In this document: positions 1,369 to 8,358 of the stretch, piece after piece | How positions within the stretch are numbered: the first letter of the stretch is position 1 | How the letters are laid out: the number at the start of each line of letters is the position of its first letter | Translations under genes and position numbers: made by a program | From: a virus | Taxonomy: Duplodnaviria; Heunggongvirae; Uroviricota; Caudoviricetes | Virus record (IMG/VR): IMGVR_UViG_2534681759_000006 | Reading direction: 5' to 3' (one strand) | DNA length: 41,553 bases | Notes under the pieces: model-generated | Seen by the model: only the letters and a program-made list of their open reading frames with translations | What the model was told of the DNA's origin: nothing | Database searches by the model: none

Positions 1369-1444
1369 GCCGATATAGCTCAGTTGGTAGAGCAGCGCAT
1401 TCGTAATGCGAAGGTCGTAGGTTCGACTCCTATTATCGGCACCA
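1369..1444 (+). tRNA. thrW: tRNA-Thr (anticodon CGT), prophage integration target
   Basis: 76-nt cloverleaf GCCGATATAGCTCAGTTGGTAGAGCAGCGCATTCGTAATGCGAAGGTCGTAGGTTCGACTCCTATTATCGGCACCA with CCA end; anticodon loop TTCGTAAT gives CGT; location directly downstream of proA as for thrW. Confidence 0.9.
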
Positions 1445-3436: not shown

Positions 3437-3963
3437 TTGCGTAACTCCGATAACTCGTTAAAGCGTTCCATAAACATCCCGTAGGCATGGCCCGGTGCCA
3501 GTGGAATCACGTTGAACATCTCTGTTGCCGGGATACCTTCCAGTACAGGCCAGAAAGAGCCATCATCAAGCCCGAGATCGCGGCGTTCGGTTGCCAGCAT
3601 GATGAGATCGGCATATTTCACGGGCGTACTCATAACTGGGGGTAACCCGTATTTCTCACGGATTACGGCGTCTATTTTTTCTTCCATTTGTTTATAGTCA
3701 GGAAGAAGGCGTTTCAGTGGTGCGGGAATGTCCTGGCAATACGCTTCTGTTGCATCATGCATTAACGCTTCAAAAGCAAATTCCTGCGGCACCAGCTGGC
3801 TGCAAAGAACCGCATGTTGGGCGACGCTGTAGAAGTGCGAAAGATGACCGGCAAAGCGACAGATATTTGAAAGGGAAACCGCGATATCGTTAATATCGAT
3901 GTCGTCTTTATTTATCCTGTCATAATAAAAATGCTTCCCGGAAAAAGTTTTAATAAATGACAT
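3427..3963 (-). CDS. HD-domain 5'-deoxynucleotidase (YfdR/YfbR-like, 178 aa from internal Met)
   Basis: HD-domain motifs (H..H, HDATEAY, D); GGAGA SD 5 nt upstream of the ATG at 3963; size and gene order match the CPS-53 yfdR arrangement. Confidence 0.7.
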   Translation of the reverse strand: MSFIKTFSGKHFYYDRINKDDIDINDIAVSLSNICRFAGHLSHFYSVAQHAVLCSQLVPQEFAFEALMHDATEAYCQDIPAPLKRLLPDYKQMEEKIDAVIREKYGLPPVMSTPVKYADLIMLATERRDLGLDDGSFWPVLEGIPATEMFNVIPLAPGHAYGMFMERFNELSELRKCA

Positions 3964-4090: not shown

Positions 4091-4915
4091 TCAGGCGGTG
4101 AAAGTACCAATAAAGGTTTCTACTTTGCTGTCCTTGAATTTCTCAACAAGCAGATCACGAAATTCGTTAGCCATTTCTTCCTGCACCGCCTCCAGCTGAA
4201 TAATGCGCAGAACCAGTACAGGACGATCGCCAGTGATAATACTGAGGCGTAATTTAAACGGACGTTCTTTCAGACCTTCAAACGGAACGCATTTAAATTC
4301 AAATGCCACTGGCATAATGTCTTTGGTCTTCGCTTCGACAGACTCCATCAGGGAGCGTTTGCCACTGAAGTCATTATCTTCAAAATCAGCGGTCTGGTTT
4401 GCTTCAATCGTGATTTTACGGACAGCCGCAGCCGCTTTTGTTGCCTGAATAGCGTCACCATTAGCATCAAAGCCCACAAGATAGTCGGCCCAGTCTTCAA
4501 TCCATTCTGCCAGTGACTTCTGGGAGTTACGCTCGCCGTTAACAGACAACAGAGCAGAGAACGGTGCTGTCTTTTTCAGTTTGAGTGTGGCGGTGTTATC
4601 TGCGTGACCTGGTTCATCAATAGTACCCAGGTTAAGCACACTGACGGCACGCATATTATCAGCATCGATAAAGCAGCGGGTGCCTTCATCTGCAAGATCT
4701 TTAGAATAACGGGTAAAGTCATCGATACTGGCAGTGGAAAGCGCACCACGGAAACGGAAGCGATTTAAATTAAATTTTTCCAGATCATGAATGCGGAAAT
4801 TCTCAGGCAATGCCACAGCATCGGCACCAATCTTACTGATAATTTCATTAACACCCTGAGCAGAAATAAGGGCATGGATTTGATTAATTGCGGTTGCGTC
4901 TAAGTTCTGAGACAT
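4091..4915 (-). CDS. DUF2303 / YfdQ-like prophage protein (274 aa)
   Basis: Length and position (between YfdP-like and YfdR-like genes) match CPS-53 yfdQ; GAGGA SD; assignment from memory of that locus, not a search. Confidence 0.55.
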
Positions 4916-5391: not shown

Positions 5392-5480
5392 ACAAAACAG
5401 AGAAGAACACCTGCGGTGACTGCCGCCCGGATGGATTGGGTTATGAGCCCGTCGTCCGGTGATGCTCTTCTCTGTTTTGT
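5392..5480. repeat. perfect 15-bp inverted repeat ACAAAACAGAGAAGA / TCTTCTCTGTTTTGT separated by 59 bp (large stem-loop)
   Basis: Read directly; lies in a ~470-bp divergent intergenic region between the YfdP-like gene and the 144-aa gene. Confidence 0.8.
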
Positions 5481-5811
5481 AAAAAGGACGGTACCAGCCG
5501 GAAGCAAGGGTACAAGCTGGTACCGCCAAGACTACACACAGCATAAAGTTGTGGTGCCGGGTGCCTCCCGGTGCCTGGCGAAGGTTGCACACCAGGCGGG
5601 TGGGTATCCACAGAAGGTCGACTGTCAGCCTCAACCTTAACCCGCGTGCGCTGAGCCGCATTCACCACAACGCTAAGGATTCTCTCTGGTTGAAAATACT
5701 TAGCTGTTATGTGCCTGCTTTTAGCCACATCAGGCGAGGTGGACCTAGTTATTCCCCAACAACAAGGATTCGGTTAATCTGGTTATCCCCAACAACGCAA
5801 AAGGAAAAGAA

Positions 5812-6246
5812 ATGTCCGGTAATATCTATACGCTGTACAAATCCCACTGTGAAAATGTTGGAAAGTATCGGGGCATTGAAATCAGTGGGGTAGTGTCATC
5901 AGTCGAAATAAGCAAAGTTGAATCAAGGGCAACATTACTTACTCTTTTGGACCTTGTCTTACATGAGCACCGGAAGAAATTCGGCACTCCCTATAATCAG
6001 TTGAATGGGAAAAAGGCTCTGGTTCACCTTATTCTGATGAAGCATCACTGGATGCCAAAACAGATTAATGAGATGAAATTTGATGAACTTCTTCTTTCAA
6101 TTCAGGATGAACTCACACTTGATAAAATAAGCGTAACCGCCCAGAAATTTTTAGATTATCGAGACTGGAGATCACAAATTCATCACTTTGATGATTTTGA
6201 CGAAAATGAATGGGATCCTAATTTGTCTGCACAATATCTAAAGTAA
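5812..6246 (+). CDS. hypothetical AT-rich protein (144 aa), oriented against the early-left operon
   Basis: AAGGA SD 6 nt upstream; visibly lower GC than neighbours; no recognisable motif. Confidence 0.6.
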   Translation: MSGNIYTLYKSHCENVGKYRGIEISGVVSSVEISKVESRATLLTLLDLVLHEHRKKFGTPYNQLNGKKALVHLILMKHHWMPKQINEMKFDELLLSIQDELTLDKISVTAQKFLDYRDWRSQIHHFDDFDENEWDPNLSAQYLK

Positions 6247-6424
6247 CATCCTGTGATAAAACCGTGATTTCCTGATCCAGTTTTTTTAAAGAGTCTATTG
6301 TTTCCTGTCGATAAGACAGCACTTCACGAAGCTGGTTTATAGCTGCCAGCTTCTTTGTCATCCACTCATAAATTTCCTCATCTGTGTAGCCAGGCGCGAC
6401 GATTTTGGGTTCTGTTTTGTGCAT
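6218..6424 (-). CDS. hypothetical small protein (68 aa from MHKTEP...), first gene leftward of the OL-like operators
   Basis: GAGGAG SD 7 nt upstream of the ATG at 6424; 3' end overlaps the convergent 144-aa gene by 29 bp. Confidence 0.5.
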   Translation of the reverse strand: MHKTEPKIVAPGYTDEEIYEWMTKKLAAINQLREVLSYRQETIDSLKKLDQEITVLSQDVTLDIVQTN

Positions 6425-6481
6425 TTCACATCTCCTCAAGTTATCAGTTACTTGTTGATGGGGACCAGATTGTTAAAGAGC

Positions 6482-6506
6482 TAAGCGTCCTGTAGGGCGC
6501 TTTTTT
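6482..6506 (+). terminator. rho-independent terminator-like hairpin (AGCGTCC tgta GGGCGCT + TTTTTTGTTG)
   Basis: GC-rich stem followed by T-run on the + strand. Confidence 0.5.
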
Positions 6507-6672
6507 GTTGCTAACGAATCATCCTGGACTTCATATGCCCCAGGCGGCTACTTCGTGGGCGTCCTGCCTGTTCGTTTTTGACATTTACTGACTGCTTACG
6601 ACACATGCACCGTGTTGCAACCAGATTTTGTTGTAATCCGGTAGTTGGTCTGGAACAAAAGATAAAATTAAA

Positions 6673-6709
6673 TTGCGAGATATGCAAGTAATATTTGCGA
6701 GGTATGCAA
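6673..6709. promoter_or_regulatory. OL-like operator pair: TTGCGAGATATGCAA and TTGCGAGGTATGCAA, 22 bp apart
   Basis: Two near-identical 15-bp partially palindromic sites (TTGC-N7-GCAA) sharing consensus with the site at 7477..7491. Confidence 0.6.
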
Positions 6710-6763: not shown

Positions 6764-7456
6764 TTAATTATGTCTCTTAAGGGTTTGCGACTGACTGATT
6801 AAGACCTTTCCAAAGACCATGAATCGGTGTTCGTTTTCGCTAGTAATTCCCCATTCACGGTAAATCTGGTTATCAGAAATCACCAGCAGTTTGTCAGGAA
6901 TCATTTGAAGTCTTTTAACGTATATTTTGTCATCAAAACCAAAGACATATATACCATCACCATCAAACTGATTGATGCTGACATCAACGAAGATGAGATC
7001 TCCTGGCTCAATGGTTGGACACATACTGTCCCCACGAACGTTGATAACTTTGATGTGATTGGCTGGTCGTCCGCCGAACATTGATACAGCATTATCAGTT
7101 CTGTATTCGATGGCATGAATCACATCAATGACATCACCGCCCTGGATAAGGCCATTTCCCGCACTGGCACTGATATCCAGCATTTCAATACGGAACACAT
7201 CCTTCACCTGCGCAACATCCTCATTATTACTGTTTTTATATACAGTATTGCTTTTGTGGGCAGAGGTAAAGAGATCAGCAATATCAACACCTAAGCTCTT
7301 GGCAATATTACTCAGTGTTTGTTCGGTAAATTGTTTTTGCTTACCCGTTTCTAAGCGCGAGATGTTCGCCGCATCTACTCCTATTGCTTCAGCGAGATCG
7401 GCGATTTTCATGTTCTTCGCTTGGCGAAGTTGTCTGACTCGGTTTCCTATGTTCAT
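6764..7456 (-). CDS. cI: CI-type prophage repressor (XRE HTH + S24 LexA-like peptidase domain, 230 aa)
   Basis: N-terminal HTH (KIADLAEAIGVDAANISRLETG), C-terminal S24 signature (GDSM...K); divergent from a Cro-like gene across an operator region. Confidence 0.85.
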   Translation of the reverse strand: MNIGNRVRQLRQAKNMKIADLAEAIGVDAANISRLETGKQKQFTEQTLSNIAKSLGVDIADLFTSAHKSNTVYKNSNNEDVAQVKDVFRIEMLDISASAGNGLIQGGDVIDVIHAIEYRTDNAVSMFGGRPANHIKVINVRGDSMCPTIEPGDLIFVDVSINQFDGDGIYVFGFDDKIYVKRLQMIPDKLLVISDNQIYREWGITSENEHRFMVFGKVLISQSQTLKRHN

Positions 7457-7476: not shown

Positions 7477-7550
7477 TTGCGTGATAAGCAAATCAACTTG
7501 CGCAAAATAATTGCGTGAAATAACATGCATAACGCGCAATATTTGGAGGT
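7477..7550. promoter_or_regulatory. OR-like operator/promoter region between cI and cro (TTGCGTGATAAGCAA and related TTGCG motifs)
   Basis: Repeated TTGCG(T/A)G...GCAA motifs in the 97-bp divergent intergenic region; GGAGG SD for cro at 7545..7549. Confidence 0.6.
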
Positions 7551-7553
7551 TAT

Positions 7554-7814
7554 ATGCAATCACCATTACGAAATGTGCGTAAGACGCATGGTTTCACTTT
7601 GCAGCATGTTGCTGCGGGTGTTCAAGTCAATCCAGCGACGTTGAGTCGTATTGAGAGGCTGGAGCAGATTCCATCTATCGAGCTTGCAGAACGTTTAGCC
7701 AATTTTTTTAAGGGTGAAGTCAGCGAAATGCAGATTCTTTATCCGGCACGTTTTCAATCTAGCCAAAACCAGAATGGGTTTAAACCACAGGAACAGGAGG
7801 TGAACCGTGGGTAA
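7554..7814 (+). CDS. cro: Cro-like HTH regulator (86 aa)
   Basis: XRE-type HTH (TLQHVAAGVQVNPATLSRIE); divergent to repressor. Confidence 0.75.
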   Translation: MQSPLRNVRKTHGFTLQHVAAGVQVNPATLSRIERLEQIPSIELAERLANFFKGEVSEMQILYPARFQSSQNQNGFKPQEQEVNRG

Positions 7815-8358
7815 GCATCACTGGAAAGTAGAAAAACAGCCTGAGTGGTACGTGAAAGCTGTCAGAAAAACTATCGCAGCGTTGCCGGGGGGTTACGCTG
7901 AAGCTGCTGACTGGCTGGATGTAACAGAGAACGCATTATTTAACCGCCTTCGTACCGATGGCGATCAGATTTTCCCGCTGGGATGGGCAATGATTTTGCA
8001 ACGTGCTGGTGGAACTCACTTCATTGCTGACGCTGTGGCGCAGTCTGCAAATGGCGTCTTTGTGTCTCTTCCTGATGTCGAGGATGTGGACAACGCCGAT
8101 ATCAACCAACGCCTGCTGGAGGTCATTGAACAGATCGGCAGTTATTCAAAACAGATTCGTTCAGCAATTGAAGACGGTGTAGTGGAACCGCATGAGAAGA
8201 CAGCAATTAACGACGAGCTGTACCTCTCAATTTCGAAGCTGCAGGAGCATGCAGCACTGGTCTACAAAATTTTTTGCATTTCAGAAAGTAATGACGCCCG
8301 CGAGTGTGCAGCTCCGGGCGCCGTGGCGTGTCGTGACTGTGGAGAAACTAACGCATGA
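7807..8358 (+). CDS. CII-like / YdaT-family regulatory protein (183 aa)
   Basis: Position immediately after cro and resemblance to prophage 'regulatory CII family' proteins; family assignment tentative. Confidence 0.45.

Follow-up and report, generated by a model that had tools for sequence, protein, structure and literature searches.

A conserved pair of convergent, overlapping genes lies beside the repressor gene of an Escherichia coli/Shigella prophage of the SfIV/SfV/e14 type, recovered as IMG/VR record IMGVR_UViG_2534681759_000006 (Caudoviricetes; 41,553 nt, the whole of which is called the window below). One gene, on the plus strand and antisense to the leftward (pL) operon, encodes a 144-amino-acid (aa) protein of the ECs1072 family; the other, the first gene read from pL, encodes a 68-aa protein of the YdfC family. 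Taken together, it is highly probable that the 144-aa open reading frame (ORF) is a real gene, that it sits in a variable cassette, and that it forms part of a convergent module conserved among prophages. What most merits follow-up is the conserved partnership with the YdfC-family gene. Within the literature searched, this partnership has not been described before: no paper naming the family or the searched protein accessions was found, and the one paper that treats the locus tag of the homologue in prophage ST64B is silent on partner pairing (PMC7067206).

The 144-aa protein belongs to NCBIfam family NF033230 (ECs1072 family phage-associated protein), scoring 157.8 bits against a curated cutoff of 70 bits and with the required full-length coverage (residues 4-144 aligned to profile positions 2-142 of 142). 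It also matches phrog_5286 over its full length (1.5e-90). The protein is identical to SfIV_36 and is encoded by phages Kati, 569R4 and 689R6 as well, and the gene is carried by 422 of 5426 complete E. coli genomes (~8%). A profile search of 1.84 billion representative proteins returned 76 family relatives (cluster representatives), nearly all of them 145-157 aa long, with conserved positions R54, L64, G66, A69, H72 and W134; W134 belongs to an acidic "EWDP" motif near the C terminus. Relatives are found in prophages of Shigella, Salmonella, Klebsiella and Serratia and in P2-like phages, and include members in the O157:H7 Sakai and ST64B prophages; a search for related loci in viral contigs with P0017 found none.

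An allele from an Escherichia albertii prophage encodes a protein 72% identical to that of the window, between DNA flanks that are 97-99% identical. The two coding sequences differ at 32, 15 and 48 first, second and third codon positions, with a synonymous divergence (dS) of 0.76 and a nonsynonymous to synonymous ratio (dN/dS) of 0.225. The comparison indicates that the gene is under purifying selection and that its coding sequence has been exchanged as an allele. The dN/dS and conservation across the family argue against an annotation artefact, a reading that we rejected. SfIV_35 (5549..5893), an annotated ORF that overlaps the 144-aa ORF and runs across the STnc100-like RNA region described below, was considered as the real gene and rejected.

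A first-pass annotation made from the letters of the window had described the ORF as an AT-rich gene with an AAGGA Shine-Dalgarno sequence, embedded antisense in the early-left operon. On re-reading of the sequence these features all hold: the ORF is a separate unit, opposed to the leftward operon under CI control at whose head it lies, and adjoins the immunity region, and its low GC content is clear (0.379 for the ORF, 0.499 for the whole window, 0.51 and 0.46 for the yfdP-like and yfdQ-like genes). Alignment of the window with SfIV and SfV places both genes in a cassette of 770 bp, with breakpoints against SfV at 5743 and 6512, that contains 69 bp upstream of the 144-aa gene, the two genes and a plus-strand terminator. 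SfIV has the cassette; in SfV and other relatives the same conserved flanks enclose different sequence, and the left flank is common to SfV, e14 (annotated as ymfH) and 1951 E. coli genomes. Presence or absence between syntenic phages (SfIV vs SfV) and deviating GC content (0.38 vs 0.50) are as expected of a moron, and the 144-aa gene has a predicted terminator of its own inside the cassette.

The 3' ends of the two genes overlap by 29 bp (6218-6246), as had been noted at first pass. The 68-aa protein matches phrog_1744 and shares 27 of 66 residues (41%) with E. coli K-12 YdfC, which is encoded by the Qin prophage (E 9e-18 in a pairwise comparison), and a tblastn search with it finds annotated ydfC genes at 39-41% identity. 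Many of its alleles in the databases (55-82 aa) match only the first ~48 residues and diverge after residue 48; a run of seven T within the gene is a frameshift hot spot (Table 1). Records of SfIV and those produced by PGAP sometimes lack an annotation of the 68-aa gene.

The 68-aa gene is more than a neighbour: it and the 144-aa gene move together, and their convergent pairing is conserved. We examined genomic contexts of 15 family lineages that span 21-100% identity (loci are designated L with a number), and 14 of these have an ORF on the sense strand of the host operon that overlaps the ECs1072-family gene at its 3' end. The family gene is always antisense to the lytic operon and the partner always sense. 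Four types of operon host the module, namely pL, pR, the pR' leader and a P2-like early operon. It is found at the start of the leftward operon, adjoining cI (the window, SfIV, E. albertii L008, L009, L096/L097, L104), in the rightward operon after cro or cII (Sakai Sp4, which holds the family prototype, now ECs_5703; L094, L098), between the Q antiterminator gene and the holin gene (ST64B, Klebsiella phages, Serratia L012) and after cox in the P2-like early operon (L100, L106). All lineages named for these four slots have an overlapping partner. The family gene of L105 is in a phage that encodes a DNA polymerase.

Partners in at least 12 lineages share the N-terminal motif EP-x-I/Y-x-x-G-Y/L-x-x-x-E-L-x-x-W-L/M, as in "EPKIVAPGYTDEEIYEWM" of the window, "EPYFFNPDLSSEQLEDWL" of the Serratia prophage, "SPHIWRGGLSDVELAEWL" of Sakai and "EPRLFRGDYTDKQLIDWL" of a P2-like phage. 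Of the 92 collected loci with a family member, many of which are near-duplicates, 91 carry a partner. The overlap ranges from 14 to >300 bp across lineages, and no conservation is seen in the partners' C-terminal tails; since the tails vary and frameshifts at the T run are common, it is the pairing and its orientation that are conserved and not the overlapping peptide. These same features would suit an accident of packing, in which an ordinary moron came to lie next to a small early gene whose ORF extends along the antisense strand as far as the first stop codon, and the complementarity between the 5' and 3' untranslated regions (UTRs) in the window is likewise not conserved. Yet the same partner family recurs in four unrelated genomic slots and down to ~21% identity. 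Because independent insertion beside an unrelated gene would not give the same partner family, we disfavour the packing accident and regard it as very improbable. The convergent pairing suggests a possible switch between lysogenic and lytic states.

Annotation of the pair in public records is incomplete. The GenBank record of ST64B (AY055382) does not annotate the ECs1072-family gene at L003 3281..3715, and the Sakai record (L102 19117..19677) does not annotate the YdfC-like partner ORF that overlaps ECs_5703. In ST64B (L003 3640-3720), the Klebsiella phages (L004 4197-4291) and Serratia (L012 4362-4435) both overlapping proteins carry the tripeptide WDP, which, going by the two protein sequences, would be encoded on both strands by a palindrome, TGGGATCCCA.

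Evidence on expression comes from the ST64B member of the family, the 144-aa protein STMMW_20121, which aligns with the window type over its full length (143 columns, hhalign probability 99.4%). Owen et al. (2020, Microb Genom, PMC7067206) determined prophage transcriptomes of Salmonella Typhimurium D23580, in which STMMW_20121 (2090066..2090500, 435 bp) adjoins the holin gene and overlaps STMMW_20131 (sb50) by 71 bp. They found the gene to be transcribed during lysogeny under nearly every condition, from a promoter of its own and in antisense to lytic genes, and listed it as a candidate accessory or regulatory gene (PMC7067206). It has its own transcription start site and reaches 61-269 transcripts per million (TPM) in 16 of 17 conditions, against 0.3-40 TPM for the holin gene and 2-7 TPM for the Q-like gene in the same table (PMC7067206). 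ECs1072 is also among the genes that change expression at growth transitions in uninduced O157 Sakai (PMC2241611), which lends weak support to lysogenic expression.

We consider it likely that the 144-aa gene is a lysogen-expressed moron in this phage too. This was the proposal of the first-pass annotation, and at the level of the family it stands, on the polymorphism between SfIV and SfV and on ST64B transcription; what did not emerge is a good sigma-70 promoter recognisable 5' of the gene in the window. When the upstream regions of 14 loci are aligned, a -10-like hexamer, TATCTT or TATCCT, recurs 31-38 nt 5' of the ATG, often after TGG, and a conserved TCAGGCGG..GTGG motif precedes it in L009, L096, L097, L012 and SfV. 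The corresponding segment of the window, TTCCCC-17-TAATCT, is a plausible candidate for a weak promoter of the 144-aa gene.

The plus-strand transcript has a predicted terminator. The hairpin with a T run that had been noticed between the 144-aa gene and the OL-like operators is confirmed at 6483-6506, beyond the start of the 68-aa gene and within the cassette. Its folding energy is -11.7 kcal/mol; its counterpart on the minus strand folds less stably (-7.5) and lacks a U tract. The E. albertii allele retains the hairpin, where a C-to-T change keeps a G-U pair.

On the minus strand, left of the 144-aa gene, lies a region resembling the small RNA (sRNA) STnc100, with a match just below the gathering score of Rfam RF02076 (47; Table 1). 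It contains a DicF-like terminator hairpin (5486-5540, -25.7 kcal/mol, z -3.7) and occupies the place at which SfV is annotated with a putative terminator and e14 with ymfH. The protein-coding annotations across this region (SfIV_34/35; 'frameshifted hypothetical' in PGAP) are probably spurious. The element may be linked to the transcription-termination immunity of SfV (Roberts et al. 2007), a link that is not used as evidence here.

Table 1. Positions of the genes, signals and cassette around the 144-aa gene (window coordinates).
Feature	Position	Strand	Remarks
STnc100-like sRNA	5478..5701	-	Rfam RF02076, 43.4 bits, E 1.3e-7
Variable cassette	5743..6512		both genes and plus-strand terminator; three-way alignment of window, SfIV and SfV
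Candidate weak promoter, TTCCCC-17-TAATCT	5752..5780	+	predicted from upstream alignment of 14 loci
Shine-Dalgarno AAGGA	5801..5805	+	6 nt 5' of ATG of 144-aa gene; read from sequence
144-aa gene, ECs1072 family	5812..6246	+	ATG start; antisense to pL operon; ORF list and NF033230
68-aa gene, YdfC family	6218..6424	-	ATG at 6424, stop 6218-6220; first gene from pL
T7 run inside 68-aa gene	6283..6289		frameshift hot spot; allele comparison
Second, weaker terminator-like hairpin inside 68-aa gene	6328..6353	+	9-bp stem, poor T tract
Shine-Dalgarno GAGGAG	6432..6437	-	7 nt 5' of ATG of 68-aa gene; read from sequence
Predicted intrinsic terminator of plus-strand transcript	6483..6506	+	hairpin 6483-6502 (8 bp, 5 G-C, loop TGTA), T6 at 6501-6506
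66-bp box in pL leader	6513..6578	-	alignments
Candidate pL promoter	TTGCAT 6687-6682, 17-nt spacer, TATCTT 6664-6659	-	predicted; read from sequence
OL operators	TTGCGAGATATGCAA 6673-6687; TTGCGAGGTATGCAA 6695-6709		left of cI; form TTGC-N7-GCAA
CI-like repressor gene	6764..7456	-	helix-turn-helix and peptidase S24; library scans
cro-like gene	7554..7814	+	
ymfL-like gene	7807..8358	+	

Our overall picture is of a portable cassette with a lysogen-phase 144-aa factor and a lytic-phase partner, and as a whole we think it somewhat likely. In this scenario the two genes would have been inserted as a unit (5743..6512) at the head of the CI-repressed leftward operon. In the lysogen the 144-aa gene would be read from its own weak promoter, from ~5787 to the terminator at 6483-6506, giving a plus-strand transcript antisense to the entire 68-aa gene. 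The partner itself should be silent at this stage because it lies behind the CI-controlled pL promoter, which CI would hold off. Upon induction or infection a pL transcript (~6650 to 5486) would make the partner first and then run head-on through the 144-aa gene, crossing it in antisense before ending at the STnc100-like terminator. Should the predicted terminators operate, complementarity between these transcripts would extend over ~700 nt and not just 29. Lytic transcription could then shut the 144-aa gene down, by transcriptional interference combined with ~700 nt of antisense RNA.

With regard to function, the 144-aa protein may be an accessory factor of the lysogen that affects phage development, either excluding superinfecting phages or defending against them, and the lytic-phase partner may be a counter-factor by which the prophage protects its own lytic growth. 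A factor of the lysogenic phase directed at phages fits the position and orientation of the gene, its presence/absence polymorphism, its allelic divergence within conserved flanks and the sieB neighbour found in a related locus. We put forward a role in defence or exclusion, with the partner as antidote, as a tentative possibility.

Searches with the 144-aa protein do not point to a known mechanism. An AlphaFold2 model built on the family alignment is all-helical, compact and well folded (predicted local distance difference test (pLDDT) 93.5, predicted template modelling score (pTM) 0.88). Pfam gave no match for the protein or for 57 family members, and searches of PDB sequences, run both with the 144-aa protein itself and with a profile of its family, gave none; Foldseek found no fold match for the model in BFVD or the PDB (best E about 1). 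HEPN and HD-type helical enzymes are the best matches of the fold search, and they do not combine a significant structural match with the catalytic motif (Rx4-6H, or H..HD). The defence models of PADLOC-DB v2.0.0 match neither the 144-aa nor the 68-aa protein at E up to 1. No long hydrophobic segment (membrane span or signal peptide) is seen in the 144-aa sequence when read by eye without a predictor, and from its sequence we take the protein to be soluble, unlike the membrane protein SieB; the Pfam SieB domain (PF14163) is likewise absent from it and the 57 relatives, and the model is a compact helical one. The sequence and structure searches also found for the 144-aa protein no homology to a known early lytic function, which would have spoken for the lytic alternative raised at first pass.

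The same searches bear on the idea of a toxin-antidote or addiction-like pair, in which the small early protein harms the host, as other small early-left proteins such as DicB and Kil do, and the ECs1072 protein neutralises its leakage, or in which the roles are reversed. The two genes co-occur obligately and are tightly packed, they have similar expression levels in the ST64B lysogen, and YdfC homologues are found in the toxic dicBF operon (PMC5069750). Against this, neither protein resembles a known toxin or antitoxin family, either gene can be found without the other, and the partner is often frameshifted while the ECs1072 gene stays. The genes are convergent and not co-transcribed, and no toxin or antitoxin domain was found, unlike in type II toxin-antitoxin systems. 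The antisense overlap recalls type I systems, but both partners are hydrophilic proteins of 59-157 aa, with no hydrophobic peptide. We consider such a pair quite improbable.

Alternatively, the pair could regulate the prophage's own switch: as a convergent unit shortly 3' of a lytic promoter it would damp leaky pL, pR or pR' transcription, and it might act on termination or antitermination, so as to stabilise lysogeny or to time early genes. The module is always promoter-proximal in an antiterminated or switch-controlled operon. In the window it occupies the pL leader, bounded by pL and the STnc100-like terminator; in Sakai Sp4 and L098 it follows cro/cII; in ST64B it is flanked by pR' and a tR'-like terminator; and in P2-like phages it comes after cox. 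Both strands are, moreover, transcribed in the ST64B lysogen. However, near-identical phages manage without the module (SfV vs SfIV), so that it is not part of the core switch, and conservation at the protein level together with a well-folded domain argues for more than a transcriptional roadblock. A role confined to the prophage's own switch is in our view unlikely.

Several observations weigh against the picture of a lysogen-phase factor with a lytic-phase partner. The evidence on expression comes from a homologue that is 26-32% identical and in a different slot. The ST64B partner is also expressed in the lysogen, at 23-258 TPM (PMC7067206), so that a partner confined to lytic growth is not a general rule. 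In that prophage the partner lies 3' of a good promoter just after the Q-like gene (TTGAAA-16-TATGAT), and a minus-strand terminator precedes the holin gene, an arrangement that would fit a constitutive short late-leader transcript. In the window, a consensus sigma-70 scan finds no plus-strand site 5' of the 144-aa gene that reaches threshold, and the aligned hexamer (TAATCT, 5775-5780) is without the TG extension of its relatives. Frameshifted partner alleles are common. Two alleles with a 28% difference in their ECs1072 proteins have partners that are 98% identical over the N-terminal 48 residues, and for this reason there is no sign of co-variation between partner and ECs1072 protein in the one close pair available. 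L007 is the sole locus without a partner, and YdfC occurs in Qin without any ECs1072-family gene. Finally, the 144-aa protein shows no similarity to any defence, exclusion or toxin family in Pfam, PADLOC, the PDB or Foldseek searches.

The antisense, tail-to-tail rule leads to a testable design, with an effector that is on in lysogeny and a counter-factor and an antisense RNA that are on in lytic growth. In its broadest form, ECs1072/YdfC would be a widespread, undescribed two-gene module in which a lysogen effector and a lytic counter-factor are locked by convergent overlapping transcription, as either a new kind of defence in which self-immunity of the prophage is built in or a portable antisense toggle reporting lysogeny versus lytic growth; we regard this generalisation as doubtful. 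If defence with self-immunity is correct, it would be a compact addition to the prophage defence repertoire and would provide a first function for the YdfC family, whose K-12 member has been uncharacterised for decades. A pair with no measurable effect would simply be another moron of unknown function.

The surroundings of the module are those of an integrated prophage. On a chromosome that matches the window at 100%, the prophage is integrated at tRNA-Thr, beside proA. A tRNA gene (1369..1441, plus strand, 71.8 bits) is present at the left end of the window and, with the tRNA-Thr beside the integrase gene on that chromosome, suggests the attachment site of the prophage. Farther along the leftward operon are yfdP-, yfdQ- and yfdR-like genes, followed by xis and int. 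The candidate pL promoter overlaps the operators (operator/promoter region 6659..6709), and at least one more exact copy of TTGC-N7-GCAA, a third operator copy, is at 7477-7491 between cI and cro. The 66-bp box in the pL leader (6513-6578) is common to the window, SfIV, SfV and the E. albertii prophage, although the operator and repressor regions just to its right differ; it could be a nut-like or other leader element.

Smaller repeats surround the 144-aa gene. The sequence TTAT(T)CCCCAACAAC forms two direct repeats 5' of the gene (5749-5771 and 5783-5805), with a degenerate third copy in the STnc100-like RNA (5660-5682) and an inverted copy just before the plus-strand terminator (6451-6471). 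Pairing between the 5' and 3' UTRs (5753-5795 with 6451-6471) nominally beats shuffled sequences here, and we rejected it as part of the mechanism on the grounds that other lineages do not conserve it. In L009 a candidate tRNA-like sequence (3750-3830, minus strand) is located between the STnc100-like region and the terminator hairpin 5' of the family member.

The slot beside cI holds other cargo in related prophages. SfV (L002) has in the same place a different convergent overlapping pair, an unannotated 81-aa ORF (4182..4427, plus strand) and orf33 (4345..4641, minus strand), which suggests that the slot generally holds antisense cargo paired with the first pL gene. Plus-strand cargo is also found between the module and cI: a gene for a BRCT-domain protein in E. 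coli G1/2 (L006 6004..6924) and, in L096, a SieB-domain gene (4327..4821) that directly adjoins the family member on the same strand. Given the SfV pair, sieB and the BRCT-domain gene, the position next to cI is a hot spot for cargo opposed to pL.

The closest relatives of the system in the window are other members of its family. Like the 144-aa gene, STMMW_20121 of ST64B encodes a full-length 144-aa homologue, is antisense to lytic genes and has a convergent small partner. Unlike it, STMMW_20121 sits between Q and the holin gene and not beside cI, and its partner is of a long type with a C-terminal SFPWDPSP tail. ECs1072 itself (ECs_5703 of Sakai Sp4, the NF033230 prototype) is likewise antisense in a lytic operon and overlaps a partner ORF with the same motif, but it is in the rightward operon, between a cII-like and a replication gene, and its overlap is >300 bp; the DNA is not similar.

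From the perspective of exclusion, the obvious comparison is with sieB (with esc) of P22 and lambda and with rexAB of lambda, which are lysogen-expressed genes beside the immunity region. In the case of sieB/esc a phage-encoded factor spares the phage's own growth, and rexAB is co-transcribed with cI. The 144-aa gene resembles these genes in adjoining the repressor/pL region, and sieB is found beside the ECs1072-family gene of L096. There is no similarity in sequence or fold, however, and the partner is convergent, whereas esc is an internal in-frame product.

The second comparison concerns the partner. In the Qin prophage of K-12, YdfC, a small protein of unknown function, is promoter-proximal in the dicBF operon and is followed by an untranslated region with the sRNA DicF and a terminator (PMC5069750). 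The 68-aa gene of the window is also promoter-proximal in a repressor-controlled operon that continues with an sRNA and a terminator (STnc100-like vs DicF). The window differs in having the 144-aa gene on the opposite strand between the ydfC-like gene and the sRNA, whereas in Qin no ECs1072-family gene follows ydfC.

Finally, opposed transcription serves as a control in other temperate phages. The face-to-face pR and pL promoters of coliphages 186 and P2, and the oop RNA directed against the 3' end of lambda cII, are cases in which lysogenic and lytic transcripts collide or pair and interfere with one another. In 186, P2 and lambda the antisense role falls to a promoter or a short RNA of the core switch, whereas in the ECs1072/YdfC module both partners are conserved protein genes, carried in an optional cassette.

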